In this document: piece after piece, positions 5,101-24,558 of the stretch
How the letters are laid out: every line of letters starts with the position of its first letter
Numbering within the stretch: the first letter of the stretch is position 1
NCBI GenBank assembly: GCA_963765255.1
Contig: CAVXVI010000001.1
Location: 733,983-765,982, forward strand
From: an uncultured Methanobacteriaceae archaeon
GTDB taxonomy: Archaea > Methanobacteriota > Methanobacteria > Methanobacteriales > Methanobacteriaceae
Length of the DNA stretch: 32,000 nucleotides
Direction of reading: 5' to 3'
Translations under genes and position numbers: made by a program
Notes under the pieces: model-generated
Database searches by the model: none
Told to the model about the DNA's origin: nothing
The model's input: only the letters and a program-made list of their open reading frames with translations

Positions 5101-5350
5101 CTGGTTTTTCTTTTTCTATGATTTGAGCTACGATTTCAGGCGTCAGTGGTTCTACATACACTGTGTCAGCCATATCAACATCTGTTTGTATGGTTGCAGG
5201 GTTGCTGTTTACAAGTACGGTTTCAATTCCCTCATCCATAAGAGATTTACATGCTTGAGAACCTGAATAATCAAATTCTGCAGCTTGACCTATTTGTATG
5301 GGTCCTGAACCAATGATAAGAACCTTTTTTATGTCTTTGTCCCTTGGCAT
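2168..5350 (-). CDS. carB: Carbamoyl-phosphate synthase large subunit
   Basis: 1060-aa ORF with two tandem ATP-grasp halves ([23 protein letters not shown] and [23 protein letters not shown]). The N-terminus is [23 protein letters not shown] and a C-terminal MGS-like domain is present. It lies downstream of carA on the same strand. Confidence 0.97.
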   Translation of the reverse strand: [1060 protein letters not shown]

Positions 5351-5469
5351 TTATGATCCTCTACCTTTTAATAAATTTTAATCGACAATATTTTCTTTTA
5401 TATGATTATTTTTTCTTAAAGTTGAATATATCAACTTAAATTCTCGGTATCTGATTTTTTTGTAACTAT

Positions 5470-6552
5470 TTAATACTCCTTTAAAACTTTAAGAAAGTTA
5501 TCAAAGTAATGATCCGAATCGTTAGGCCCGGGTCCTGCCTCGGGATGATATTGTACACTTGAAATTGGAAGTTCGTCATGTTCAATACCTTCGGGTGTTC
5601 CATCATTTAGGTTTACTTGATTAATTTTAATAGGCAAGTCTTTGCATGAATCAGCATCAACAGTAAAACCATGATTCTGGGAGGTTATTGTAACTTTACC
5701 CGTTATTAGATCTTTTACAGGTTGGTTTATGCCTCTGTGTCCGAATTTCATTTTATAAATTTTAGCACCGAAAGCAAGGGATATGATCTGATGACCTAAA
5801 CATATACCCGAAATTGGTAATTTCTCCGAGAGATTTCGCACTGTTTTAGCTGCTTCTGTGACTCTAGTGGGGTTTCCTGGCCCACTTGAAACAAGCACAG
5901 CTTCAGGGTTGTAATCTAAAATTTCTTTATATCCCGTTTTGTATGGTACTACCACAACACCTATTTCCCTTTTTAAGAGAGCATTGATACTATTCTTTTT
6001 TATACCGCAGTCAAGAATCACTGCACGGTGTTTTAGTTCTTCACCAATAATTTTTGGTTTTTTTACTGCAACAGTGTCAACCAAGTCCATATCTTCAATA
6101 TTTTTCTGTTCATTTACTAGTTTTAAAAGTTCATCATCCTCAATTTCTTCTGTCGAAATTGCACCTTTCATAGCTCCATGACGTCTGATCTTAAGGGTTA
6201 GATATCTAGTATCAATTCCGCTTATACCTGGTATTTGATATTCTTCTAAAAAATCTGGTAAATTTTCCCTCGAGAGTCTATGGGATGGATAGCTATTTTG
6301 TTCTCTTACAACATATCCTTCTGCTTTTATTCCCTCAGATTGGAACCAATCTCTTGATATTCCATAATTACCTTGTAACGGATAGGTTGACATAAGAATT
6401 TGACCTTTGTAAGATGGATCTGTCAATGATTCAACGTATCCGGTCATTCCAGTAGCAAAAACCACTTCTCCTGTTTTAATGGTTTCAAAACCGAACCCTT
6501 CTCCTTTAAGTATTGTACCATCTTCTAAAGCTAATTTGGCCTCTTTTAGCAT
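5470..6552 (-). CDS. carA: Carbamoyl-phosphate synthase small (glutamine amidotransferase) subunit
   Basis: 360-aa ORF. The class I GATase nucleophile elbow is GICLGHQ and the HPE triad region is [23 protein letters not shown] sits 3 nt upstream of the ATG. Confidence 0.97.
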
Positions 6553-11147: not shown

Positions 11148-12380
11148 TTATCCGAACATCACTCCAGCTTCTTTCCTCATCTCTTCATCGTGTTCCATGC
11201 CAACTATTTTATCAACAGCGTCCATGAAATCGTTCATTGTAACAGTAGATCTTTCTTCCCTTATTGCAAACATACCCGATTCAGTACATATTGCTTTTAG
11301 ATCAGCACCTGATGCTCCTTCTGAAAGTGATGCAATATGTCTTATATCAACATCTTCATCCAAAGTCATCTTCTTAGTATGGATCTTTAATATTTCATTC
11401 CTACCATCTTCATTTGGAATTGGAACTTCAATGAATCTGTCGAAACGTCCAGGTCTTAACAGGGCAGGGTCAAGTATGTCAGGTCTGTTAGTTGCTGCAA
11501 CAATTCCCACATCACCTCTACCTTCAAAACCATCCATTTCAGCGAGTAACTGCATAAGTGTTCTCTGAACTTCCCTATCTCCACTGGTAGAACTTTTGAG
11601 TCTTTTAGCTGCTATGGCATCGATTTCGTCTATGAATATTATACTTGGGGATTTCTCCTTAGCAAGTTCAAAAACACCTCGAACAAGTCTTGCACCTTCA
11701 CCTATATATTTTTTAACGAATTCAGATGCAACTATCTTTATAAAAGTTGCATTTGTTTCGTGTGCAACTGCTTTTGCAAGTAGGGTTTTTCCAGTTCCTG
11801 GAGGGCCGTAAAGTAATACTCCTTTAGGAGGTTCTATACCTATGTTGATGAACAGTTCCGGTTTTTTGAGTGGTAGTTCTACAGTTTCTTTTATCTCAAC
11901 TACCTGTTCTTCCAATCCGCCAATCTGTTCATATGCAATATCTGGTTTTTCCTCTACTTCCATACCTGTTACAAGAGGGTCTTTTTCTGAAGGCAGAACA
12001 TGTACTATGCTGAATGTCTGCTGGTTAAGTGCCACACGAACTCCTGGTTCAAGTGACTTTTCATCTAAGAATCGTGAATATCCAATTACAAAATTAGGGC
12101 CTGTGCTACTTTTCACAACTACCCTGCCATCATCTAAAACTTCAGTTACTGTGGCAATTACTAATGGTGGCGATCTGAACCTTTCAATCTCTCCGCGAAG
12201 AGATTTAACTTCCCTGTCCAGCCTCATTTTCTCGTTTTCGATCAGGACTTTATCCTTTTCGAGCTTCCTAACTTTCCACATTAGGTTACGTTTGGTTTTA
12301 GTGTTGTCCTCTTTTAGGATTTTTATCTCCGTTTTAAGGTCTTCAATCTTTTTTAATACATTTGGGGACATGTTTTCCAT
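11148..12380 (-). CDS. pan: Proteasome-activating nucleotidase (AAA+ ATPase)
   Basis: 410-aa ORF with an N-terminal coiled coil and OB domain. Walker A is [15 protein letters not shown], Walker B is IIFIDEIDA, and the second region of homology is present. The C-terminal ...GVMFG tail resembles the HbYX proteasome-docking tail of PAN but ends in G, so it is not an exact HbYX match. Confidence 0.95.
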
Positions 12381-12520
12381 GATCCTCGCTCACTCCTAAC
12401 TTTTATAAAAAAAAATAATACTCTAAGACTTAATATTATTTACACAATTTATTGTTCTTAATAATATTTAAATATAGGGGTATAGATTATATAATGATTA
12501 CAAATGCAAAGTGATTACTC

Positions 12521-12994
12521 ATGAGATGCGAGATATGTGGAAAAAAAATAGTAGAAGAACCAATAAAAACTAAAGTAGATGGTTCAATCATGCTTACGTG
12601 TAAAGATTGCTCAAAATTTGGTAAAGTACAAAGAGAAGCACCTAAACCAAAAAGACCTGGAGCACCAAGGGGTGGGACTCCTAGGAGAATACAAAGACCA
12701 AAAGAACCGGCCGAAGAAGTTGTAGAAAATGTTAAGGATATAGTTAGACAGGCAAGAGAAAGGAAAGGATGGTCTCGCGAAGAACTTGGAGAAAAGATCT
12801 ATGAGAAAGCTTCAGTTGTAAGTAGAATAGAGTCAGGAAAAATGGTTCCTGATCTCAAACTCGCTAGAAAGATCGAAAAATTGATGAACGTAGTATTAAT
12901 TGAGAAAAATGAAGACGTGTCTGCGGATGGATTAGGACATTCTAAAGTTAGAGGAGCAACTATTGGAGATATTGCCCAAATAAAAAAGAATTAA
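12521..12994 (+). CDS. Archaeal multiprotein-bridging factor 1 (aMBF1): zinc ribbon plus HTH protein
   Basis: 157-aa ORF. The N-terminal CxxC...CxxC ribbon is MRCEICGKK...CKDCSKFG. The C-terminal cro/C1-type HTH is RERKGWSREELGEKIYEKASVVSRIESGK. Confidence 0.85.
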   Translation: MRCEICGKKIVEEPIKTKVDGSIMLTCKDCSKFGKVQREAPKPKRPGAPRGGTPRRIQRPKEPAEEVVENVKDIVRQARERKGWSREELGEKIYEKASVVSRIESGKMVPDLKLARKIEKLMNVVLIEKNEDVSADGLGHSKVRGATIGDIAQIKKN

Positions 12995-13126
12995 TTTGCA
13001 TATTATTTATTGGGTTGAAAGATTAATTCAGCTAAATATTTTTTTTTAATTTCATTAAATTACTTAATAAAATATAAAAAATAATTAATTTCAATTTTTT
13101 TATATTAATTTTTAACATAATAACAC

Positions 13127-13501
13127 TTATTTATTTGATTTTTTGTTCGGTTTATCTTTATGAGAATAGTAACCCTTTAAATATGTAAGTCCATGAAATG
13201 TTTCTTCCAACGACTTAAATTCACCATACTCTTCACTGATAACTATAACATGTGCTGGTGGGTGTATCTTCCTGATGTGGACAATACTTTTAGTTGTATC
13301 ATCTTCAACACGGACAAGCACGGCTATATCTGATTTTGATCTTACTTCTTGTCTAAGAATCTTACTTGCAATTTCGTCAGCTTTTCTTGAGTTTATTATT
13401 CTAGGTTTACCAGCGACTTTCAGTCCAGCATGTCGTTCAATGTCTGCTAAAGTATTCAAAAGTTTGCCTTGATCTTCAGCACGTATTAAAATTAAAGCCA
13501 T
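13127..13501 (-). CDS. Small cytoplasmic protein of unknown function; last gene of the co-directional cell-wall block
   Basis: 124-aa ORF with an ATG preceded by a strong GAAGGAG RBS at 7-8 nt. There is no signal peptide or TM segment, and the C-terminal tail is lysine-rich. I do not recognise the family. Confidence 0.6.
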   Translation of the reverse strand: MALILIRAEDQGKLLNTLADIERHAGLKVAGKPRIINSRKADEIASKILRQEVRSKSDIAVLVRVEDDTTKSIVHIRKIHPPAHVIVISEEYGEFKSLEETFHGLTYLKGYYSHKDKPNKKSNK

Positions 13502-13619
13502 ATTTTTACTCCTTCTAATAAATTAGATATTGATAATAAAAATTTAATATTTAATAAAATAGTTAAAAAGGAATATAATGTATCCATCTATTCCTAATTA
13601 TTAAATTATTCTATTTCAA

Positions 13620-14882
13620 TCATTTCTTTTTGAGGAATGATGATATTAATGTACTTCTAAAGAGAACTAGAATAACTAGTATCAATCCTATTGCTGTTTG
13701 TACATTACCTAAATTGCTCAAATCAGATGAACTTATTGGTAAATTCCATGAAGGAGAGGATTTATTGCCTTGTAGTGGCGTATAGTATACTCCAACTGCT
13801 CTTTGGTTTTCCTTTACATTAATGTCCATAGGTTCTACGTGGTTAACACCTACCAATAGCCCGCTTCCTATAGCTTTATTAATTGAATTAGCTATTGATG
13901 TTGAGCTATAACCATATTTTTCAGTTGATGCTTGTACAATTTCTTGGGTTGTTTCATAAATTCCCGGTGCATCGGTTCCATAAACAGATACAGCTGTTGA
14001 GTTTGTAGTTACTGTGATCGCACTTCGTAGAGCTTCAGTTGCTGTTACTGTAGTTAATGGGGTGCCATCAATAGGACTTGTTTGATAGTTAGCAGCTTCT
14101 GGGAAACCAATACTCCATCCGTTTGGACTTATTTTACTGTAATTTTCATCCATGGGAAATCCAGTTGTATTATAAGCTGTAGGTGTAAACATGTCTCCTG
14201 TTGTTATTCCAGAAACAAGGTTAATTGCTCCTCCTCCATGTTTTTCACCAGCATTTACGGCCACATTTTGAAAAGCAGCTGCAACAACATCTGTTGCAGG
14301 ATAACCGTCCCTTATCATCTCTCCCATTAGTTCAGCTGTTTGAAGACGAACAGCATCTGCTGTACCGTATTGGGGATTACCCGGAGTATTTCTGAGGTGG
14401 ATTATTGCACCACGATCTCCAGGGGGAAGGACTGCCAGACCTCCATCATACGGTGTTATAGTTATTGTACCGTTATTAGAAACAATTATAACATATGCTA
14501 AGAAATAACCTCCCACTGCAGCGCCGATTGTTGGTCCGCCATCCATAACTCTTATTCCTGAAAATCCATTAGCTAAAGTTGCTGCCTGAGCAGCGGTACC
14601 GCCATTTTCAAGACTATTTACTGATGAAACTATGGCACCAAGTCTTGGTGTCTCATTACCTTCACCACCAGACAGTACTGCGAAATGTTTATCCTTTGAC
14701 ATTATAAAAGTCGATTGGAACATATTTTCAGCCCAAGATTGACTTCCTGCAGCTGCACCGTTAGGATCTTTACCTGTTGGATCTGTTATCACTATAACGT
14801 TCATGGTTGCTGATGCGGTGTTTACAACCATTGAGAAAGTTATAAAAAATAAAACAAATCTCATTAAATTTACTCTCTTCAT
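13620..14882 (-). CDS. Exported, C-terminally membrane-anchored surface protein of unknown function (cysteine-free, many N-x-S/T sequons)
   Basis: 420-aa ORF. The N-terminal signal peptide is MKRVNLMRFVLFFITFSMVVNTASA, and the C-terminal hydrophobic anchor plus basic tail is AIGLILVILVLFRSTLISSFLKKK. The ectodomain is rich in Gly, Ala and Thr. Sequons present are NET, NGT, NTT, NYS, NST and NKS. Its start lies 10 nt after the stop of the upstream gene, and the RBS AGGGG overlaps that stop. Confidence 0.75.
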   Translation of the reverse strand: MKRVNLMRFVLFFITFSMVVNTASATMNVIVITDPTGKDPNGAAAGSQSWAENMFQSTFIMSKDKHFAVLSGGEGNETPRLGAIVSSVNSLENGGTAAQAATLANGFSGIRVMDGGPTIGAAVGGYFLAYVIIVSNNGTITITPYDGGLAVLPPGDRGAIIHLRNTPGNPQYGTADAVRLQTAELMGEMIRDGYPATDVVAAAFQNVAVNAGEKHGGGAINLVSGITTGDMFTPTAYNTTGFPMDENYSKISPNGWSIGFPEAANYQTSPIDGTPLTTVTATEALRSAITVTTNSTAVSVYGTDAPGIYETTQEIVQASTEKYGYSSTSIANSINKAIGSGLLVGVNHVEPMDINVKENQRAVGVYYTPLQGNKSSPSWNLPISSSDLSNLGNVQTAIGLILVILVLFRSTLISSFLKKK

Positions 14883-14892
14883 AATTTAGCCC

Positions 14893-15336
14893 CTAATATG
14901 TTCCATTCAGCCCTTTAATTTGGATGTTTGAAAAGTCTTCAACAACATTAACAGTAACTATTCCTGTTTGATTATCGACTTGAACATTTGCTGCATCTAT
15001 CGGAGTTATCTGTGTACCTGGGATGGTAGTTAACAAAACAGCCTGTTGTGCATTACTTATGGCTTCATTTAACGGAACCATACGTTTAGTCGTAACTAGT
15101 GTGTCTCCCTGTATGTAGCTTCCGGATCTAAATCCAACATTAGCTAAACTAGCTTTAATTGAATCTAACGGTACTATATCGTTACCGTGAACTATCACTC
15201 CGGATATTTCGACTCCGTGATTTCCTACATCTGTGGATGATGCATAGGACATATAAGTCATGACTCTTCCTGAAAAAATAAGCATGAAGGCCAGTAATAA
15301 AATAATTAATGTATCTCTCCTAATTTTTATGAACAT
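14893..15336 (-). CDS. Small N-terminally anchored (type II) membrane protein with a POTRA-like ectodomain (FtsQ/DivIB-like pattern)
   Basis: The ORF track gives 14893..15366. I prefer the ATG at 15336 (MFIKIRRD...) because AAGGTGA lies 4-5 nt upstream and an AAATTTATAAATATT TATA-like box lies further upstream. The protein has a short basic N-terminus and one TM segment (LIILLLAFMLIFSGRVM). The ectodomain runs VEISGVIVHGNDIVPLDSIKASLANVGFRSGSYI ... PLNEAISNAQQAVLL ... ITPIDAANVQVDNQTGIVTVNVVE. This fits the beta-alpha-alpha-beta-beta POTRA pattern (I..I.v.Gn..v....i...l....G ... g.l.i.V.E). The POTRA call is pattern recognition only. Confidence 0.6.
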   Translation of the reverse strand: MFIKIRRDTLIILLLAFMLIFSGRVMTYMSYASSTDVGNHGVEISGVIVHGNDIVPLDSIKASLANVGFRSGSYIQGDTLVTTKRMVPLNEAISNAQQAVLLTTIPGTQITPIDAANVQVDNQTGIVTVNVVEDFSNIQIKGLNGTY

Positions 15337-15502
15337 TCTTTCACCTTTAGTGCATTGACTTTGCACTTATAATATTTATAAATTTATTATTTTTACGAAA
15401 TTTTAAAATTAATTGATCTTATCTTTATTGATTAATCTTAATTGTTATAATAGTATGTAAAGTAATAACATAATATGATACTGCCTAAAAACTTTGACAA
15501 TT

Positions 15503-17023
15503 TTATATATCTTTCAATTTGAGAATATTTTCTTTGTATTTGAATGCAGCTTCTCCTAAACAGATTAAAGCATCACTTTTACATTTTAATCCTATTTTAA
15601 CTCCTGCTAACACTTGATCAGAACTTGCTCCAAGCGTGCCTTTTTGGAATTTTTCTGAAGACATGTTAGTAAGTAAGATCTTCCCACTAGAAATATGTTT
15701 ACCATGTTTTTCAGCAGCCTTGCGTGAAGCGAACGATGCGGGGATAATAAAATCTCCGTATTCAATGACATTTTGTAATATTTCCATATCTCCCAATTCT
15801 CCAGATTCTGATGAAACAGTAATAACTACAGTGATGTTATTGTAAACCTTTTTTAACTCCCTAAGAACTGTTTCGATTCCCGCAGGATTATGACCGTAGT
15901 CGAGAATAACATCCATTCCATTGTTATCATACAAGTGTTCAATCCTACCCGGAACACCTTTAAAACTTTTTATAGAAGATAATATTTCATGAATTGGTAT
16001 TTTAAAGAATTCTCTTGCAGCTGCTATTGCTCCAATAGAATTGTAAACATTATGTAGTCCTATTAATTGCATCTCAACTTCTACATCTCCTTCTGGGGTT
16101 TGCAGAGTATAATTTCCATTTGCTTCATCTATATTTTTAGCTAGATAATTTGGTATTGGTCTATTTATTCCGCATTCACAACTGTACTTTCCTGAACCTG
16201 TAATAGTTTCATTTATAATAATCTCTCTTCCACACCAGCATGGCTTTTTACCAATTACTTCAGATGGAGCATCAACACCGAAGGTAATAACTAAACTTTC
16301 CGGGTTTAGCATTCCAAATATAGTAGGATCATCTGAGTTAACAATTAATAATTTGTTTTTGAAGTATTCTATGAATTCCCCTTTAATACCCGCGTAACTT
16401 ATAAAATCAAGGTTTTCATCAAGATGATCAGGGTTTATATTTGTTACAACTCCACACTCTGGTTCGCTACGTTCAACCATTAGTTTAAGATCCCCAACTT
16501 TTCCAAACGTACCTGTTTCAAGAACAGCCACATCTCCACTTAGTCTGGCTTGTAAAGGAGGTATATAGTCAATATTTCCCTGTAAATTCCTAAAACCATG
16601 TTCTGTAGGTTCTAAACCACATTTTCGGCATATATGTTTCAGTAGTGTAGTAGTAGTCGTTTTACCGTTAGTTCCAGTAATACATAATACTGGTTTTTTG
16701 GGCTTAAAACGTTCTAATATGTCCGTTACCGATAAAATATCTTTTTTATATCTTTTAATTTGGTTAAAAAACTCAGATGTTTCCATTAAACTTGGGGGTG
16801 TCACGATATAAGTGGATCTATTAAAAAATGATTCAGGATGTTCTGATAAATCTAATGGTATTTTATAATCGGTTAATGTGTAAAGATAATCGCATTCTTC
16901 CTTTTTATGTAAATCTGTTCCTATTACAGAATAACCACGGTCCATTAACATCCTTGCAATGAGATTTGATACGATTCCACAGATTCCTATTACTCCATAA
17001 ATTTCCGGATTTTCATTATTCAT
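15503..17023 (-). CDS. Mur-ligase family protein, MurC-like N-domain (pseudomurein peptide ligase candidate) with a Cys4 zinc-ribbon insertion
   Basis: 506-aa ORF. The MurC-style N-terminus is [29 protein letters not shown] and the P-loop is [14 protein letters not shown]. Other Mur-ligase motifs are [14 protein letters not shown] and [13 protein letters not shown]...CECG insertion lies at aa 262-284. The start overlaps the upstream gene's stop by 8 nt. Confidence 0.85.
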
Positions 17024-18422
17024 ATTTTTTACAACCTTCTCTGATACCGGACATCATTTTGGTTTTAACATCTTCATAATTAGTAATGGCTCCAGGACCA
17101 ACATGTAATATAATAGATCCTGAATGGGAATGTTTAATAGATAATTCTCCCGCTGTGATCATGTCTTCAACAGGAATTTTAATTGCTGATGATTTTCCTG
17201 CTCCTTGGATTACTTCATTTGCAGCTTCAATATTGAATTTTTTAGTTGTTTCATTATACCCACTACAAATTATTACATTAGCGTATTCTCCGACAACTTC
17301 TCCCACTTTATACTTATCTCGAGGATTTGTACTATCTGGATTGTCTATAATAACAATTAATTCTTGGTTTTGAAAAATTTCAAGTGTTTTAACAAGGCCT
17401 TCAGGAACAAATGCAGCATCAAAATGAACTTCTCTGCCCTTAAAATTTCCGATATATTCCATGTGACCTGCAATTCCTTTAAAACTTTTTAAACCTTTAA
17501 TTATAGAATTTTCGTCCAATCCATACGCAAGTGCTGCAGCAGTAGCTGCAATAGAGTTTTCAGAATAATATCCCAGTAATTTGAAAGATGTTTCAAAATG
17601 ACCCTTGATATTTAAATTGGGTATATCGTACGTTATATCGAATATCCCATCCTTTAATTTCCCATTAACATCACATTTATTATTTTCTTGACAATAAAAG
17701 ATTGTGTCATCCCTTAAATTTTCAAGATAATTGGTACACTGTATACCCGAAACCAAAATTTTACTAGAATCTGCTATAAAAAGTTTACGTGCAACATATT
17801 TCTCCATGGAATATTCAAATTCATCCAGATGATCAGGATAAATATTGGTAATTATTCCGACATTTAAATCAACTTTTGACATGAGCCTTGAAGTTCCATG
17901 GGGAAGCTCAATAACGGCTATATTGTTTATCTTGTGGAGACCATTTACAATCCCATCTACAATAACCTCACTAAGAAGATTTCCCATTCTTGATGAACAA
18001 GTCCATACTTTGTAACCATCATTCTGAAATATATTTGACAAGATATGAGTGGTGCTGGTCTTTCCAAGCGTTCCTGTAATCCCTATTATATCTAATTCCA
18101 ATAGATTGTTTATGACTGTTGAAACATAATCATTGTCTAATATTTCAACTTCTTTATCATTCAATAACTTCCTGATTGGAGAATTTTCAGGTACTGTGGG
18201 TGAAATATAAGCATAATCTACCTTTTCAATACCTAAAGATGCATCTGAACCCAACATCAGTTCTACACCTTCTTCTTCCATTATTTTGAGAGTTTTCTGC
18301 ACCTCTGGTTGAAATTCTTCAAGAACTTTTCTATCAGTTATAATTACTTGATTTCCTGCATGATTAAGGATTCTTCCAGCTGGACGTCCGGCGTTACCTG
18401 CTCCTATTATTATACATTTCAT
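17016..18422 (-). CDS. Mur-ligase family protein, MurD-like N-domain (pseudomurein peptide ligase candidate)
   Basis: 468-aa ORF. The N-terminal Rossmann GxGxxG is [18 protein letters not shown], as in MurD. The P-loop is [15 protein letters not shown] and TNIYPDHLD is present. A GAGGGA RBS sits 8 nt upstream of the ATG. Confidence 0.85.
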
Positions 18423-18666
18423 AATTAATTTCCCTCAAAGAATTTAGTTAAGACTACTCAACAATCTTTAAAACATGATTAAAATTAAATTTATTCACAT
18501 TAATTTATTTATTATTTGTCATAATTTCGATTTTATATATGTTCGTTATGAATTAAATGGATATTCTTTACAACTTATTTATTTGCCATTTATACAAAGA
18601 TTTTAGAAAAAATAGTAATTATAATATTAAATAACTAAAAAGAAACATTAGAGACAGAAAAATCTG

Positions 18667-20184
18667 TTAGTGATTATTTGTATCTAAATTTTTATTTATT
18701 TTCGATATAATTTTGCTTGCAGGATCCATTCCCTGAGCACCTATAAGTAATACAGTGTCGGCTTTTTTTGCAGATTTTAAGGTATATTCCAGTGCAGGAT
18801 ATAAATTTTCAAGATACACACATTCCAATTGGTTTTCCATTAAAGTTTGTAGTACAATATCCATTTCAGTTTGTTTTACAGTGTTGGCACTGTCAACGGC
18901 TTCGGCACTACTTGTCACTATAATACTATGATCTAAACCTTTTAGCCCATTCACAAGTGCTTTGGAATTTAAATCATTTATTGTAGATCCTCTTGAGCCT
19001 CGGATTGCAAATACAACATAGAGGGTTCCTTTACATATCTTAGCAGCACTTCGTATAGTGGCTACTATTCCATCAGGATTGTGAGCAAAGTCATCTATTA
19101 TCAATGGATTTTTACCCAATATGCTGAATCTTCTTTCAAGCTGTTTATAAGAAGATATTCCCTGTTTAATCACTTTCTTATTAATATTTAAAGCTAAACA
19201 AGCATCTATTGCTGCCATGGTATTTTGAAGGAAGTGTTTACTATTAAATGGAAGTTCATCTGTTTTCAGAAATAAGTCGGAGTAGAGATAAATACCATCC
19301 AATTTTAATGTTATATTCTGATAATTAGAACCATTCTCAATACTTCCATGAGATAAAAGATTAATAACATCTCTTTTTTGTATGATCTCTCCCATTTTCA
19401 GAAGCAAAGGATCATCAGAATTTAGAATAGCATATCTTTTTTTTAAATCATTTTTTTCAAATTCAATACTATGTTCTGATATGTTAGATATAGCTTCTAA
19501 AGATCCAAATATCTCATTAAATGTTTCTTCAATAGAATTAACCAGACCTATATGATCCAAACCCACATTTGTGATTACTAATACATTAGGATCTATTGCT
19601 GAAGTCATTAAGTACGCATGATTTTCCATGAGTTTGTCTAACCATCCTTGTACTTCTGAAACTTCTATAACCATAGCTTGAATTGGTTTATTATTAATAT
19701 TTTCGAAATCAGCAATTTGTACTGCCACAACCGGGTCGATTAATGTATTAAATTCGGATTTAGCATCTGTATTAGTATAAGTGTTGTAACCAGCTAAAGT
19801 TAATATCTTGTAGATCATATGTGCTGTTGTTGATTTACCATTCGTACCAGTTACCACCACACGTAAAGATTCTTTAGCAAAAGTTTCAACTGCCCATTTG
19901 AGAGCAAATGCATTGGCAAATTCGATTTTAGGCGTAATTATCAGGGGTAAATTGAGTTTTTTTGATGTTTCAATGGCTTCTGAAGTTGGATTTTGTGTGA
20001 TGATACAAGAAACTTTTTTTTGTGATGCTATGGTAATACCTTTCTCATCAATCCAGTGCCTTATCACAACATCCCCAGGCCTTGCACGATTTAAAAAAGT
20101 GAAGATACCTTTAACAGGTTTTATGTCTCCTATTAAATCCCCCTTAACTTTTTGGGCCAAATAAGATGTAGTAATTTCATTCAT
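18667..20184 (-). CDS. Mur-ligase family protein, MurE/MurF-like N-domain (pseudomurein peptide ligase candidate)
   Basis: The ORF track starts at a TTG at 20265, which overlaps the upstream gene by 58 nt. I prefer the ATG at 20184 (MNEITTSYLAQKVKGDLIG...), preceded by AGGGAT. The MurE/F-like N-domain contains ARPGDVVIRHW...CIITQ. The P-loop is VTGTNGKSTTAHMI, and ITNVGLDHIG and DDFAHNPDG are also present. Confidence 0.8.
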   Translation of the reverse strand: MNEITTSYLAQKVKGDLIGDIKPVKGIFTFLNRARPGDVVIRHWIDEKGITIASQKKVSCIITQNPTSEAIETSKKLNLPLIITPKIEFANAFALKWAVETFAKESLRVVVTGTNGKSTTAHMIYKILTLAGYNTYTNTDAKSEFNTLIDPVVAVQIADFENINNKPIQAMVIEVSEVQGWLDKLMENHAYLMTSAIDPNVLVITNVGLDHIGLVNSIEETFNEIFGSLEAISNISEHSIEFEKNDLKKRYAILNSDDPLLLKMGEIIQKRDVINLLSHGSIENGSNYQNITLKLDGIYLYSDLFLKTDELPFNSKHFLQNTMAAIDACLALNINKKVIKQGISSYKQLERRFSILGKNPLIIDDFAHNPDGIVATIRSAAKICKGTLYVVFAIRGSRGSTINDLNSKALVNGLKGLDHSIIVTSSAEAVDSANTVKQTEMDIVLQTLMENQLECVYLENLYPALEYTLKSAKKADTVLLIGAQGMDPASKIISKINKNLDTNNH

Positions 20185-20207
20185 ATTTATATCCCTTTGA
20201 TAAATAA

Positions 20208-21281
20208 TTAGAATACTCTGTAACCATACAATGTAGCTAAACAAACTAGTAAGGTTGCTCCCCAATAAATTATAATAATTTTCTTCTCAGATAATCCCTT
20301 ATAGTTAAGGGTATGATGAAGGGGTTCTACTGGCAATTTAATAATATGTGCCCTATGAAGAAGGCTAACAATTACTGAAATTATTGGTACAGCAAGTGCT
20401 AAAACCGCAAATAATATTATATCTCCTAAAAATGCAGCAGTAATATATCCTGCTCCGAGGGCAAAAGATCCAGTATCTCCCATAAATATGCTTGCAGGAT
20501 ATTTATTATACACTAGAAAACCAAAACAGGCACCAGCAATTACAATAAAAGGTAATGATCCGTTTGGATTTCCTGTTGATATCACAAATATTGCCGAAGC
20601 AATTGAAGCTATAGCAATTATTCCCGCTGCAAGACCATCCATTCCATCGATAAGATTAACTGAATTTATTGATCCTACAATACCAAATATTATAATTGGG
20701 ATTATGAGTAGTCCTATATTAAATCCTAGTATGGAAGCACCAACAGCTCCTGAAGCTATAAGAAATAAAGAAACTAGTATCTGTGCGGAAATCTTTTCGT
20801 TTTCTTTTATTTCACTTTTTATTGGTGCTTCACCAGTTATCTCGACTAAATTATTTTTTAAGAGATATTCTAAGTCTTTTTTAGCTTTAGGTGTTGTTAC
20901 TCTAGCATTTTCACCAGTTTTAAGAGTTAATCTACCAATTTCTACTTCTTTTGGACTTATATTCCTTATAACTTTTTGAATTTCCTTTGTTTTGAGTCCT
21001 ATAAGATCATCCATCAATCCAACGATTCCAGCGACCATCATGATAATTACTGTTAAAACAAGGTTTTTATCAGCGTAAAAAATACATGCAAGTAGAAGAA
21101 CTCCCATTAATATGGCAAGTCCTCCCATGGTAGGTGTTCCTGCTTTATGACTATGTTCTGTGACTATTGGATTATCTTTAACATCTGCATATTTCAACAT
21201 CTTCTTGACAAAAAGTGTGAAAAATGCTGTAGCTATGAATGTGAGTAAGAATATGAAAACTTCAACTTGAATATTGCTCAA
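20208..21281 (-). CDS. MraY-like polyprenyl-phosphate phospho-sugar(-peptide) transferase (PNPT/GT4 family)
   Basis: 357-aa polytopic membrane ORF. It has a TTG start with a GGTGAT RBS 3 nt upstream of the TTG (5 nt from the GGTG core) and no nearby in-frame ATG. Motifs are GLMDDLIG (DD), NSVNLIDGMDGLA (NxxNxxDGxDGL), FMGDTGS and the His loop PVEPLHHTL, which is MraY-type rather than WecA/AglH-type. Confidence 0.88.
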   Translation of the reverse strand: MSNIQVEVFIFLLTFIATAFFTLFVKKMLKYADVKDNPIVTEHSHKAGTPTMGGLAILMGVLLLACIFYADKNLVLTVIIMMVAGIVGLMDDLIGLKTKEIQKVIRNISPKEVEIGRLTLKTGENARVTTPKAKKDLEYLLKNNLVEITGEAPIKSEIKENEKISAQILVSLFLIASGAVGASILGFNIGLLIIPIIIFGIVGSINSVNLIDGMDGLAAGIIAIASIASAIFVISTGNPNGSLPFIVIAGACFGFLVYNKYPASIFMGDTGSFALGAGYITAAFLGDIILFAVLALAVPIISVIVSLLHRAHIIKLPVEPLHHTLNYKGLSEKKIIIIYWGATLLVCLATLYGYRVF

Positions 21282-21428
21282 AATATCACCTTTAAATTGT
21301 TTTATAAGAATGGAATCATTTTGAAATATAAATGCAGTTAACTATTTATATATACCATTTCTTATGTATCCTTTTATTATACAGGTTCCCTTTAATTTTA
21401 TTCTAATGTATAATCTTATCTTCAAGTT

Positions 21429-22565
21429 CTATTTTAAAATTTTTAGATCTTTAGATATTTTAATGGCTTTTGCCATTGTTTCACCGCGTATTGTTATACG
21501 TTCATAATTTTTAGGTCCATGAATGATCCAAGAATTTTTATTGGGAAATTCCCTGAATTTATGATTGTTTTTATTTGAAGGATAACTACCGACTGGTATC
21601 TCTATTGCAGAATAATGTTTAATTTTATCTTTGAGTTTTGAAGCATCCCAGTACCCTGTTGCCATATCAATTAGTTCATGCATTATATTTACACCCGTTG
21701 CGGCATTTGTGATATATCTTGTACCGCTGGGTCTGGCATTTATTTCTATAACATTATTTTCTTGTGTTTTAGTGTTAAATATAATATCAATATCTGCTGT
21801 ACCCTCTAATCCTATTTTATTTGCAATGTCTATAGCAATTTTTTGAATTTTGCGATTATTTTCTTTGTTATTAATGTCCTTTATTTCTAATGGGGCTTTT
21901 TTAATCTTTTCCAATGGATGGATACATTCTAATGTAGTTTTTCCTTTATAAACAGGAACTAATGGCACTGTTTTCCCATTCCATCTTAAGACTTCTATGG
22001 AAATTTCAGAACCAGCAATAAATTTTTCAGCTACACCATTTTCAAATAAAGGGAAATATCTATCTGAATCGTTTATGGAAGATACTATCTTTATTCCGGA
22101 TCCACCTTGTCCTTCTATTTTTTTTAAAACCATTGGTTCATTGTTTTTTATTTTTTGTTGAACCATTTTATAATCATTCTTTGTTATTTTAAAATATTCC
22201 GGAGTTTTAATATTATTTTTTACAAAAAATTCTTTGGTTTTAAATTTGTCTACACATGTTTTAGCTGCAAAAACAGGAGATGCTACTACAGGGATTCCAT
22301 AATCCTCTTCTAACTTCTTTTTCATAATAGCTACTTCAACAAGAGGTCCATCAATCCCTATTAATGGAACAACTCCATCTACTTCTTCTTGAATGGCAAT
22401 TTTCATTGGTTCATCCATTCCTCTTGAAACAATATAATTAGAATCAGCTAGTTTCAAGTTGGGAGATTGGGCATTTGATTCGGATATAATGCTCGTTATA
22501 GAATTTTTTTTGGTGTAGAGTGCTACATCATCAAATAGACGAGCCCCTATAAACAAGATTTTCAT
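21429..22565 (-). CDS. ATP-grasp enzyme, CarB-like single ATP-grasp module (pseudomurein-cluster 'CPS-like' ligase candidate)
   Basis: 378-aa ORF. VIEINARPSGTRYITNAATGVNIMHEL aligns by eye with carB in this same window ([26 protein letters not shown]). It also has the glycine-rich loop KKIEGQGGSGIK. It is the first gene of the co-directional block. Confidence 0.8.
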   Translation of the reverse strand: MKILFIGARLFDDVALYTKKNSITSIISESNAQSPNLKLADSNYIVSRGMDEPMKIAIQEEVDGVVPLIGIDGPLVEVAIMKKKLEEDYGIPVVASPVFAAKTCVDKFKTKEFFVKNNIKTPEYFKITKNDYKMVQQKIKNNEPMVLKKIEGQGGSGIKIVSSINDSDRYFPLFENGVAEKFIAGSEISIEVLRWNGKTVPLVPVYKGKTTLECIHPLEKIKKAPLEIKDINNKENNRKIQKIAIDIANKIGLEGTADIDIIFNTKTQENNVIEINARPSGTRYITNAATGVNIMHELIDMATGYWDASKLKDKIKHYSAIEIPVGSYPSNKNNHKFREFPNKNSWIIHGPKNYERITIRGETMAKAIKISKDLKILK

Positions 22566-22718
22566 TTTATCACGATTAGCTTTAATATATTTTGACTAGA
22601 AAATTTTTAAGTAATTATTAATATGAATATTTTTTTTATTAATATAAATCCAATTTTTTAATGCTTTATCTTTTCTAAAAGTCATAGTTAAAGGTGTAAG
22701 ATTTCCTATATAATAATA

Positions 22719-23219
22719 TCAATCTAATGATGAAGTTTGTACATCGAACGAATACTTAATAATTTTAGTTAATTTTTCCACACCAATGTTGGCTTCCTTT
22801 GAAATTTGATTGGACAATTCCATATTTTTTGGTTGAATCCCAATCAGCAATATTTTGACATTTATAAATGATTCTAAATATTTGATCATGAATGATAATG
22901 GCATGGCATGAGTTGAAATGTTGTAATCTGCTATTTCCTCACATCTAATCAGTTTTATTGAACCCGGATTCTTTTTCATTTCAACAGCATCTATAAAAAT
23001 TATGTGGGATGGTTGTTCTTTTTTTATAATACCTGTATAGTTTTCTGGGACTGTTCCAGCATTTATAACTACAAACCCTTCTTGATTTCTGAATAATTTT
23101 ACCAGATTTTTAGCTATTAATGGTCCTACTGCATCATCTCCACGCATATCATTACCAATACATAAAAAAATGAGCTTACTACAGTCCTCTGTGAATATTC
23201 TCAATTCTTGCTCTAACAC
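22719..23219 (-). CDS. hycI: Hydrogenase maturation endopeptidase (HycI/HybD family)
   Basis: 166-aa ORF with the signature LIFLCIGNDMRGDDAVGPLIA (GNxxxxDDGxG). The start is GTG at 23219, or TTG at 23204. Either start overlaps the 3' end of the upstream methyltransferase gene. Confidence 0.85.
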   Translation of the reverse strand: MLEQELRIFTEDCSKLIFLCIGNDMRGDDAVGPLIAKNLVKLFRNQEGFVVINAGTVPENYTGIIKKEQPSHIIFIDAVEMKKNPGSIKLIRCEEIADYNISTHAMPLSFMIKYLESFINVKILLIGIQPKNMELSNQISKEANIGVEKLTKIIKYSFDVQTSSLD

Positions 23220-23886
23220 TCTCTAATCCCCCACCCATCTTATAATATAAGTTTAATTGTATGATATCGTTGGAATAAACTTTTGTTTTTTCAATAGGAA
23301 TTATTAAAGGAGGATTTAGCATAGGTGTTGGGCCACAGATAATATCCTCAGTTATTAAAGTAAATGTAGTGATTTTTACACCAGAAACAATCCCGGATAT
23401 TTTTATTTTGAGAGCTATTGATTCATTAAATATAGGGGGTGTATAATACATAAAATTTATTCTACTGTAGAAGTTAGGGTTTCCTAAAACCCTGTTTTTT
23501 GGATGTCCATCCTCTTCATAACATATATCTTCAATATCAACTCGAACAGGTTCTATACAATTTAAAATTCCGAAAGGGATAATTTCCCCATTGTCTCTCA
23601 AATATTTCCTTACAGAATTTAATACTGGAACTTGTTCTTCATCTATAAGTGCGGTATCCAACATTTCACAGATGATAACATCTGCTTTTTTTGAAAATGA
23701 AAATTTAGTTGCATCTGCATTGATAACTTCGACATTATCAAGATCTTTGAGATTCGATCGTGTGCATTCTGCAAGGGGTTTATTAATTTCAACTGCATAA
23801 ACAAAATCTGAATGTGGAGCTGCCCATGCTGAAAGAATTCCTGAACCTGCTCCTAAATCATAAACAGTTCCTTTAGCTTTTTTCAA
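23179..23886 (-). CDS. Class I SAM-dependent methyltransferase with PRMT-like architecture; the coding signal continues upstream of this TTG to 23952
   Basis: Motif I is VYDLGAGSGILSAWAA, the post-I region is YAVEIN, and ICEMLDTALIDEEQV resembles the PRMT double-E/THW region. A C-terminal beta-rich domain follows. The codons upstream of the TTG read FTSYHHNLISDTARLAGFYEAI. By eye this aligns with the PRMT N-terminal helix (F.SY...H..ML.D..R...Y..a). No ATG, GTG or TTG exists there (see findings). Confidence 0.7.
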   Translation of the reverse strand: MKKAKGTVYDLGAGSGILSAWAAPHSDFVYAVEINKPLAECTRSNLKDLDNVEVINADATKFSFSKKADVIICEMLDTALIDEEQVPVLNSVRKYLRDNGEIIPFGILNCIEPVRVDIEDICYEEDGHPKNRVLGNPNFYSRINFMYYTPPIFNESIALKIKISGIVSGVKITTFTLITEDIICGPTPMLNPPLIIPIEKTKVYSNDIIQLNLYYKMGGGLESVRARIENIHRGL

Positions 23887-24000
23887 TATGGCTTCATAAA
23901 ATCCTGCTAATCGTGCAGTGTCTGATATGAGGTTATGGTGATAGGACGTAAATTAACACCTTCGTAAAATTAATCCTGTAAACTCGTAAATTATGAATAA

Positions 24001-24025
24001 ATTAATAATATTTAATATTATTAAT
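24001..24025. repeat. Perfect 25-bp palindrome (12-bp arms, 1-nt centre): ATTAATAATATT-T-AATATTATTAAT
   Basis: I read it directly and verified both arms base by base. It lies 52 nt downstream of the nikR stop and immediately upstream of a TATA-like TTATTCATAATTT for the methyltransferase-hycI operon. Confidence 0.6.
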
Positions 24026-24076
24026 GAATTCTACTGTAATATATCCTACTACCATGTAGATTGGAATTTGTGAAAT

Positions 24077-24487
24077 TTATTCTATTTTTTCGCCGCTTGC
24101 AGTACTTGTTAGTTTTACGTGCTCGACGCCTTTCAATCTCATAATCTTCTCAGTTAGGTCACGTATGTATTTAACGTCTCCCTTAACAACCACAACTTCT
24201 AAACAATATTTCTCAGTCATGTGAACATGCATTACAGCGTTGATATAATCTCTGTAGTCGTGCTGAATATCTGTTAAATCTTCCATAACACCAGTGTAAT
24301 GATGGTCATATATTACTGCAAGTATCCCTATTCTCTCGCCTTCCATCTCATTCATCCACTGATAACGGACTATATAATCTTTTAATGCGTCTCTAATTCC
24401 CTTAGACCGTGATTGGTATCCTCTATCTTTAAGAACTTCGTCAAATTCACTTAATAATTTTTTAGGTAATGACATGCTTATTCTCAT
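24077..24487 (-). CDS. nikR: Nickel-responsive transcriptional regulator NikR
   Basis: The N-terminal ribbon-helix-helix is MRISMSLPKKLLSEFDEVLKDRGYQSRSKGIRDALKDYI. The C-terminal ACT-like nickel site is VMHVHMTEKYCLEV. I prefer the ATG at 24487, preceded by GGGAGGG, over the track's upstream start at 24535. Confidence 0.9.
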   Translation of the reverse strand: MRISMSLPKKLLSEFDEVLKDRGYQSRSKGIRDALKDYIVRYQWMNEMEGERIGILAVIYDHHYTGVMEDLTDIQHDYRDYINAVMHVHMTEKYCLEVVVVKGDVKYIRDLTEKIMRLKGVEHVKLTSTASGEKIE

Positions 24488-24522
24488 CACAATATTCCCT
24501 CCCAATTTATAATACCATAATA

Positions 24523-24558
24523 CTAAATTTGGCACTATTTAAAGCTTGTCCTAAATTT
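24523..24558 (-). promoter_or_regulatory. Putative nikR promoter: a TATA-like CTTTAAATA (24543..24535, minus) flanked by two copies of CTAAATTT 28 bp apart
   Basis: The TATA-like element is about 50 nt upstream of the nikR ATG. CTAAATTT occurs at 24523-24530 and at 24551-24558. This is a positional argument only. Confidence 0.3.

Follow-up and report, generated by a model that had tools for sequence, protein, structure and literature searches.

An exported protein with a predicted Ntn-hydrolase-like fold and its proposed POTRA-like partner as candidates for an extracytoplasmic step of pseudomurein synthesis in Methanobacteriaceae

A stretch of 32,000 nucleotides (nt) from contig CAVXVI010000001.1 of an uncultured Methanobacteriaceae archaeon (hereafter, the window) carries a cluster of eight genes at 13127-22565, all on the minus strand, that includes genes of pseudomurein biosynthesis. 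Two of these genes, which encode proteins of the Mfer763 family (14893..15336) and the Mfer764 family (13620..14882), were analyzed in this work. The best overall explanation, to which we assign a probability of about 0.45, is that Mfer764 would be an exported threonine amidase or transpeptidase acting on the stem peptides of pseudomurein and that Mfer763 would be its POTRA-domain scaffold. The pair is very probably a pseudomurein module that acts outside the membrane. The cluster and its two unexplained genes are already known from the literature and from the NCBI family library. The N-terminal nucleophile (Ntn) fold and POTRA readings, together with the mechanistic hypothesis built on them, are new here and were not found in the papers searched; the literature search found no paper linking pseudomurein to Ntn hydrolases, Taspase, or POTRA/FtsQ-like proteins.

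The pseudomurein pathway was reportedly sketched around 1990, and flipping, polymerization, and cross-linking outside the membrane are said to have been open since. The candidates published for these extracytoplasmic steps rest on weak analogy. According to the literature, cytoplasmic enzymes build a nucleotide-linked stem peptide, and MraY transfers it onto a lipid carrier. Subedi et al. 2021 (PMC10117817) described a "Gene Cluster 2" consisting of Ddl/CarB, MraY, pMurE, Mfer763, and Mfer764, in which the last two were named as conserved transmembrane proteins that are "always found downstream of pMurE". The same genes were recovered independently as "cluster A" by Lupo et al. 2025 (PMC11915815), who described OG0001162 and OG0001472 as pseudomurein-specific and "devoid of known domains", and in whose account the ATP-grasp orthologue is characterized as a small carbamoyl-phosphate synthetase and transglutaminase-like proteins are the best cross-linking candidates. 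A 2026 paper reports assays of PMurB, PMurC, and PMurE and does not mention the two appended genes. An earlier note on this DNA had proposed the genes appended to the ligase genes as the best candidates for an undescribed extracytoplasmic part of the system. The idea was sound, but it had already been published (Subedi et al. 2021; Lupo et al. 2025), and curated NCBI models exist. The accompanying statement that no enzymes were assigned for flipping and cross-linking was incorrect, since flippase homologues and transglutaminase-like proteins have been put forward for these steps, on the level of proposals.

Gene identities were assigned with Pfam and curated NCBIfam models and their cut-offs. 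Seven of the eight genes exceeded the curated NCBIfam cut-offs for pseudomurein families, among them Mfer763 (Mfer763_fam NF053641, 222 bits; cut-off 170) and Mfer764 (Mfer764_fam NF053642, 644 bits; cut-off 560), which bears out the earlier reading of the region as a pseudomurein biosynthesis island. To determine how the pair is distributed, a genome scan was performed with one genome per prokaryotic species. An Mfer764 relative was present in 222 genomes, and loci were counted in the best 80 of these, all of which belonged to Methanobacterium, Methanothermobacter, Methanobrevibacter, and their allies. When the Mfer764 profile was searched against 1.84 billion representative proteins, 63 hits were obtained, all within the Mfer764 family; only two were full-length clusters, one of the Methanobacteriales type and one from Methanopyrus, and the others were fragments or chimeric assemblies. 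The presence profile thus places the pair in pseudomurein archaea, that is, in Methanobacteriaceae (the best 80 of 222 genomes) and Methanopyrus, with no relatives outside them in this protein set.

Synteny with the Mur-like genes was also found. Among the best 80 loci, all 74 Methanobacteriaceae loci counted had Mfer763 immediately upstream of Mfer764, and the gene before Mfer763 was pMurC in 42 of 70 loci and pMurE in the other 28. Within Methanobacteriaceae, such adjacency is weak evidence of a common function, because the whole neighborhood is conserved there: a family-wide block consists of NikR, a methyltransferase, HycI, the cluster, DUF356, aMBF1 (on the opposite strand), and PAN. In a comparison of window positions 11148-24535 with the 80 loci (L001-L080), the syntenic block in Methanobacterium, Methanothermobacter, and Methanobrevibacter far exceeded the cluster. 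The comparison with Methanopyrus is informative, because the cluster order is kept there although the flanking genes all differ. Methanopyrus kandleri carries contiguous genes for pMurC, the ATP-grasp enzyme, MraY, pMurE, Mfer763 (149 amino acids, aa), and Mfer764 (416 aa), and every other neighbor is different.

Two additional proteins were noted at the locus of Methanopyrus kandleri AV19 (L081; listed coordinates 11253-12362 / 3259-4263). A 369-aa polytopic membrane protein is encoded 1 nt downstream of Mfer764, and the gene before pMurC encodes a 334-aa protein that has an SGGKDS motif, as in PP-loop ATPase-like proteins. The 369-aa protein is probably the pseudomurein-specific OG0000796 of Lupo et al. 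2025 and could be a flippase or polymerase candidate. No homologue of either protein was found in the window.

The Mfer764 family is extremely conserved except for its N-terminal hydrophobic stretch. Based on column conservation, a signal peptide was predicted at aa 1-25 (14808..14882), ending in A-S-A. The n and h regions of this signal are variable (2.13 bits per column, compared with 0.83 bits in the mature part). Of the 104 sequences, 103 have Ala at position -1, and V, A, or S occupies position -3, which gives a site of the form [V/A/S]-[A/S]-A. The following residue, Thr26 (codon 14805..14807), is Thr in 104 of 104 sequences and heads a beta-strand-like stretch, T-[CML]-N-[VI]-[IV]-[VI]-I-T-D. 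The N-terminus has the pattern of a cleaved Sec signal peptide, with Thr26 as the predicted first mature residue and the proposed nucleophile. The occurrence of an invariant Thr directly after a cleaved-signal pattern led to the Ntn hypothesis, in which the nucleophile would be unmasked by signal peptidase; this hypothesis was written down from the sequence alone, before the structure model was built and the fold search was run. Approximately 60 residues are invariant in the Ntn-like domain, and many of them are polar or Gly; D34, D39, N41, S47, S49, T58, S62, R80, and H162 are among the invariant positions. At the other end of the protein, a transmembrane anchor at aa 392-413 (13644..13709; helix 385-418 in the model) is highly conserved (0.68 bits) and is followed by a basic tail. 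Inspection of the protein therefore agrees with its earlier description as exported and C-anchored.

A degenerate zinc-ribbon region was located at aa 245-280 of Mfer764 (14043..14150). Of 106 homologues, 51 have four Cys in its CxxC...CPxC motif region and 16 have none there; the protein of the window is one of these 16, with all four ancestral Cys lost. Weak Pfam zinc-ribbon matches were obtained for 39 of the 106 members. Judging from this pattern, a metal site or disulfide in the exported protein appears dispensable. Two ideas about the C-terminal part were rejected. The tail was considered as a modular sorting signal, but the proteins concerned (P0295, P0290, and P0303) are chimeras or fragments with an identical Methanobrevibacter tail. 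A sortase LPXTG signal was likewise discarded, as the motif is LP[IV][SN]x without Gly, is set some 10 residues ahead of the helix, and is replaced by TPISP in Methanopyrus. Seven metagenome "proteins" (P0246, P0255, P0256, P0288, P0290, P0295, and P0303) fuse Mfer764 pieces to unrelated sequence; these entries look like assembly chimeras and could mislead surveys of domain architecture.

A mosaic pattern of divergence was observed at this locus. Between the window and locus L015, the segment 13520-15010, which covers all of Mfer764 and the last ~40 codons of Mfer763, has 69-80% nucleotide identity, compared with 92-99% in the flanks. Locus L001 shows the converse, with 95% and 93% aa identity to the window for Mfer764 and Mfer763, respectively, and only 80-94% for the flanking genes. 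Read from these sequence comparisons, the mosaic suggests either allele exchange by recombination or diversifying selection on a surface-exposed module.

Structure prediction and fold searches, which the earlier note had proposed as a check, were performed for both proteins and returned an Ntn-like fold for Mfer764 and a POTRA-like fold for Mfer763. The AlphaFold model of Mfer764, built from 106 sequences including Methanopyrus, had a mean predicted local distance difference test (pLDDT) score of 83.2 and reached 90-97 across aa 81-160. Its Ntn-hydrolase-like domain (aa 26-235, 14178..14807) is composed of four strands, two helices, four strands, two helices, and one strand, and the first strand (residues 27-32) begins directly after Thr26. 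HslV and proteasome beta subunits have the nucleophile-first Ntn order of elements, and the order in the Mfer764 model fits this topology. Beyond the domain, the model contains the zinc-ribbon-like insert, a small alpha/beta domain, and the C-terminal transmembrane helix with its basic tail.

In the Foldseek search against the PDB, the top seven matches of Mfer764 were all to human Taspase-1 (E 3.6e-6 to 3.4e-4, probability 1.0), engineered by circular permutation so that the chain begins with the catalytic Thr. The next matches were proteasome subunits, HslV (template modeling score, TM-score, 0.55 when normalized by target length), bile-salt hydrolase, DUF1028, Anbu, the aspartylglucosaminidase beta chain, and GlmS. 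The aspartylglucosaminidase beta chain likewise has its nucleophile Thr as the first residue. One superfamily accounted for nearly all of the top 50 matches, with PP2C-type sandwiches among the weak, poorly scoring ones. In both the model and the fold search, Mfer764 has the four-layer alpha-beta-beta-alpha sandwich of the Ntn superfamily. It shares this sandwich with the Thr-Ntn hydrolases; in addition, its Thr26 is predicted to head the first strand, as their nucleophile does, and glycines close strand 4 at the site of the oxyanion-hole glycine. The chain would be nucleophile-first, like HslV and the engineered circularly permuted Taspase and unlike native Asparaginase_2. In contrast to the Thr-Ntn hydrolases, Mfer764 would rely on signal peptidase and not on self-cleavage to expose its nucleophile, and it has the zinc-ribbon region, a membrane anchor, and a C-terminal domain as extra parts. 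Taken with the limits discussed below, these model-based matches lead us to favor, without much confidence, the view that Mfer764 is a Thr-Ntn enzyme.

Mfer763 is a single-pass protein in which a basic N-terminus and a transmembrane helix (aa 9-32, 15241..15312; visible in both the model and the conservation) are followed by a POTRA-like outer domain (aa 44-135, 14932..15207) with the order beta, alpha, small beta meander, alpha, beta, beta. In its AlphaFold model (pLDDT 80.7), the N-terminal helix is long (residues 7-32) and is joined by a disordered linker to a domain of 95 residues. The first Foldseek match was FtsQ (8hhf_Q, E 3.4e-3), and POTRA domains of BamA, TamA, CdiB, Sam50, and Omp85 filled almost all of the top 50, with a root-mean-square deviation (rmsd) of ~3 Å over 93-97 columns; no match reached E 1e-3. 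When the Mfer763 family profile was compared with all PDB sequences, one hit was obtained, to the start of Haemophilus BamA POTRA2 (E 6.9e-4). In one-to-one comparisons, E. coli BamA residues 93-130 gave E 5e-4 and E. coli FtsQ gave E 0.063, and the signature I-x-x-I-x-v-x-G-N-x-x-v-x-x-x-x-I-x-x-x-L-x-x-x-G of Mfer763 matches BamA POTRA2. The curated POTRA models PF07244, PF08478, and PF08479 had no hit in the Mfer763 protein of the window. The Foldseek ranking, the BamA POTRA2 profile match, and the topology support the earlier description of an N-anchored POTRA-like protein.

The architecture of Mfer763 is FtsQ/DivIB-like and its detectable sequence signal is BamA-like. In its model, Mfer763 appears to share with both groups of POTRA proteins (FtsQ/DivIB and BamA/TamA/Omp85) a beta-alpha-alpha-beta-beta-like core, to which it adds a small beta meander between the two helices; it differs in being archaeal and single-domain, with neither the beta domain of FtsQ nor a barrel. 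The protein does not belong to FtsQ/DivIB by sequence (E 0.063), and its outer domain of ~105 aa is too short to include the beta domain, so that the likeness to FtsQ is at the level of the fold only. The column entropy of the transmembrane helix is 0.2-0.37 bits, compared with 0.60 bits in the outer domain. Because it is more conserved than the outer domain, the helix is probably a retained, interacting membrane anchor and not a cleaved signal.

The gene identities, the synteny, the restricted distribution, the conservation patterns, and the fold matches are results of the analysis; we infer where the signal peptide is cleaved, that Thr26 is catalytic, what the substrate is, and that the two proteins are partners, and propose the following mechanism. 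Mfer764 would be exported by the Sec pathway, and signal peptidase would cut after A-x-A, exposing the invariant Thr as the new N-terminus. Thr26 would then head the first strand of the Ntn alpha-beta-beta-alpha sandwich and serve as the nucleophile, its free amino group acting as the base, and the conserved C-terminal helix would tether the enzyme to the membrane, near the emerging lipid-linked precursors. In the most likely reaction, Mfer764 would attack a stem-peptide amide, forming an acyl-enzyme ester on Thr26 and releasing the terminal alanine. Transfer of the acyl group to an amino group of a neighboring stem would amount to cross-linking; alternatively, transfer to water would amount to trimming or turnover. 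FtsQ/DivIB and BamA POTRA domains bind by beta-strand pairing, and Mfer763 could, in the same manner, bind the enzyme or the nascent stem peptide as a non-catalytic scaffold or regulator.

Penicillin-binding proteins (with Ser) and L,D-transpeptidases and sortases (with Cys) form an acyl-enzyme outside the membrane that is then attacked by an amine. The chemistry proposed for Mfer764 would be the same, by analogy; the folds are unrelated, except that gamma-glutamyl transpeptidase has the Ntn fold. Transpeptidation is attractive because the terminal alanine of the precursor could be the leaving group, because gamma-glutamyl transpeptidase, which has an N-terminal Thr, shows that a Thr-Ntn enzyme can transfer acyl groups to amines, and because the cluster has no link to any other conserved exported enzyme.

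Several observations weigh against this proposal. Some proteins with an Ntn fold, such as the proteasome alpha subunits, are not enzymes. Mfer764 had no Ntn-family hit in Pfam at E up to 10 and no match among PDB sequences; its Thr follows a signal peptide and not an alpha subunit, and by these results it lies outside the Asparaginase_2/Taspase (peptidase T2) family. An hhalign comparison with an Asparaginase_2 profile of 15 sequences (E. coli iaaA and plasmid-borne homologues) gave P = 0.037 and a probability of 1.4%. The alignment, though weak (P = 0.037), takes the form expected and counts in favor of the Ntn reading: it pairs Mfer764 38-166 with beta-subunit residues 185-314, so that the invariant G73 falls on G231, the oxyanion glycine, and R80 falls on R238. 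Strict homology to Asparaginase_2 by a natural circular permutation was kept as no more than suggestive: the motifs of the beta subunit match up on visual inspection, IaaA alone aligned over 15 columns (E 0.097), and the mapping of the alpha subunit was unsupported. In the structural comparison, the Foldseek rmsd was large (6 Å or more for Taspase) and the TM-score normalized by the query was ~0.3, the latter because the matched domain leaves out more than 40% of Mfer764. The model was built on a shallow alignment (Neff ~2.2), and the placement of Thr26 on the catalytic Thr comes from the strand order of the model and the chain starts. For Mfer763, Pfam PF07244 matched 3 of 101 members with a best E of 0.19, which is not significant. 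The published cross-linking candidates are other proteins, the transglutaminase-like ones. Finally, a Sec signal was predicted for only one of the two proteins, with the other classed as "Other, 1 TM" (Lupo et al. 2025, PMC11915815). Many Mfer764 database entries (P0029, P0065, P0079, P0088, P0244, P0319, and P0374) begin at an internal Met, without the signal peptide, and such gene calls may explain the missing Sec signal in the published targeting predictions.

The fold evidence fits a purely hydrolytic role, in trimming or autolysis, about equally well. That Mfer764 is the cross-linking enzyme of pseudomurein, an Ntn-type transpeptidase with a Thr unmasked by signal peptidase and a POTRA partner, is unlikely when taken as a claim by itself. 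It is rather unlikely, too, that Mfer764 is an Ntn hydrolase only, a stem-peptide trimming enzyme or autolysin, with the cross-link made by transglutaminase-like proteins. Such an enzyme would draw on the same fold evidence, its closest structural neighbors (Taspase, proteasome, HslV, and aspartylglucosaminidase) are hydrolases, and exported transglutaminase-like proteins are the candidates already in print. However, an autolysin is rarely the most conserved, single-copy, and strictly syntenic partner of precursor genes in both pseudomurein orders, and Ntn enzymes can also perform transfer, as gamma-glutamyl transpeptidase does. The transglutaminase-like or PeiW-type proteins share with Mfer764 that they are exported and are candidates for the same cross-linking step; they differ in having a Cys-protease fold and many paralogues, many of them adhesin-like, and in that their genes are unlinked to either biosynthesis cluster, with none encoded in the cluster of the window.

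The catalytic role itself is given up if the pair is a scaffold for division or elongation, in which Mfer763 would be an FtsQ/DivIB analogue and Mfer764 a dead Ntn-like protein, the two together positioning the wall machinery or tying the membrane to the sacculus. FtsQ was the top Foldseek match of Mfer763, an N-terminal helix with a POTRA domain stands at the distal end of a wall cluster, both transmembrane helices are unusually conserved, and non-catalytic Ntn folds exist. This account is nevertheless distinctly improbable in our view: Thr26 is invariant exactly at the predicted cleavage site, the invariant polar and Gly residues of the Ntn-like domain resemble an active site, FtsQ has no significant sequence similarity to Mfer763, and PSI-BLAST found no FtsQ orthologue (Subedi et al. 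2021, PMC10117817). We give very little weight to the view that both fold assignments are artifacts of shallow alignments or of generic four-layer sandwiches and that the proteins have another fold and function. The alignments are indeed shallow (Neff 1.6 for Mfer763 as well), there is no Ntn signal at the sequence level, PP2C-type sandwiches occur among the weak hits, and Mfer763 has no fold match at E 1e-3 or better. Against this stand the pLDDT of 90-97 in the model core, the origin of nearly all top 50 matches from one superfamily for each protein, the prediction of the N-terminal Thr before the model existed, and the independent profile match to BamA POTRA2. An exported threonine amidase or transpeptidase with a POTRA scaffold remains the explanation that we prefer.

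The remaining genes of the cluster and its gene starts were also described. All eight open reading frames of the earlier note are present at 13127-22565 on the minus strand, and their named identities agree with Pfam and NCBIfam. The ATP-grasp enzyme ("Ddl/CarB-like", 21429..22565) scored 559 bits with NF053643 (cut-off 500) and matches Pfam ATP-grasp_3 and CPSase_L_D2. It is followed by the MraY-family phospho-sugar-peptide transferase, a polytopic membrane protein (20208..21281; MraY_archaea NF053644, 557 bits, cut-off 450; Pfam Glycos_transf_4 and MraY_sig1), and by the peptide ligases pMurE (18667..20187, frame to 20265; NF053648, 680 bits, cut-off 600; Mur_ligase_M and Mur_ligase_C), pMurD1 (17016..18422; NF053646, 730 bits, cut-off 610), and pMurC (15503..17023; NF053645, 743 bits, cut-off 560). 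A true carB (1060 aa) and carA (360 aa) are located at 2168-6552 of the window. These housekeeping genes lie ~16 kb away from the cluster's CarB-like gene, which therefore encodes an additional paralogue, a small ATP-grasp protein, and not the housekeeping carbamoyl-phosphate synthetase. The G+C content of the window is ~33%, and the closest database relatives of its genes are from uncultured Methanobacterium and Methanobacteriaceae genomes.

Compared with cluster 2 and cluster A, the window has the same genes in the same order (ATP-grasp, MraY, pMurE, Mfer763, and Mfer764), all above the cut-offs, with pMurD1 and pMurC inserted between pMurE and Mfer763; the Ntn and POTRA fold readings are not in Subedi et al. 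2021 or Lupo et al. 2025. The earlier note had also seen an echo of the bacterial dcw cluster. An MraY-family transferase, Mur ligases, a Ddl-like ATP-grasp enzyme, and a distal single-pass protein with an N-terminal helix and a POTRA domain, in the position of ftsQ, are indeed shared. The resemblance is loose, however: the gene order is unlike, and ftsW, ftsI, murG, ftsL, ftsA, and ftsZ are missing here. None of ftsW, ftsI, murG, ftsA, and ftsZ or of the murD-ftsW-murG pairings was found among the open reading frames of the window, and Subedi et al. 2021 (PMC10117817) reported them as absent or unlinked and the gene order as largely unlike dcw.

The 8-nt overlap of pMurD1 and pMurC (17016-17023), the 10-nt gap between Mfer763 and Mfer764 (14883-14892), and the ATG at 15336 were exactly as described before. 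The longest pMurE frame starts with a TTG at 20265 and overlaps the end of mraY by 58 nt. Because the family model NF053648 begins at residue 36 of this frame, the ATG at 20187, 20 nt past the mraY stop, is the likelier start. For Mfer763, the NCBIfam model starts at the Met of ATG 15336, and a GGTGA ribosome-binding site precedes this codon (15341-15345); ATG 15336 is preferred over the alternative GTG 15366. A TATA-like element, TTTATAAATA (15373-15382), lies 37-46 nt upstream of ATG 15336 and, together with the GGTGA, forms a putative promoter and ribosome-binding site of the Mfer763/764 pair's own (15341..15382). A G-rich ribosome-binding site for Mfer764 overlaps the Mfer763 stop codon, with the Mfer764 start 10 nt beyond. 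Such close spacing supports reading the two genes as one unit. A scan for bacterial promoters and terminators gave 61 sites compared with 56.5 expected and was uninformative, as the model is the wrong one for an archaeon.

The DUF356 gene (13127..13501; PF04009, E 4e-38) had been counted in the earlier note as a third member of the appended module, and this did not withstand the comparison. In 64 of 69 Methanobacteriaceae loci, the gene is found at most 1 kb downstream, an adjacency that is not more conserved than that of the unrelated neighbors HycI, NikR, aMBF1, and PAN, and it is absent from the 21-kb Methanopyrus locus, so that its linkage is confined to Methanobacteriaceae; on these two grounds its membership was rejected. 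A 118-nt AT-rich spacer separates it from Mfer764, and its family, PF04009, has also been listed for a Borg element of Methanoperedens, an organism that lacks pseudomurein. The gene is probably a bystander. Its product has no hydrophobic segment on inspection, consistent with the cytoplasmic location given before, and a sequence search of the PDB found no solved relative.

If Mfer764 does make the cross-link, it would add a further independent enzymatic route to wall cross-linking, besides penicillin-binding proteins, L,D-transpeptidases, and sortases. The hypothesis is falsifiable, as it depends on one residue (Thr26), one fold (Ntn), and one partner (the POTRA protein). Mfer764 is surface-exposed, single-copy, and both universal and unique to pseudomurein methanogens, such as the Methanobrevibacter of the rumen and the human gut, and for these reasons it is an attractive target for methane mitigation or anti-archaeal agents. 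Mature inhibitor chemistries exist for threonine-Ntn enzymes (boronates, epoxyketones, and vinyl sulfones), and Mfer764 would then be a methanogen-specific target in wall synthesis that is open to threonine-directed inhibitor chemistry.

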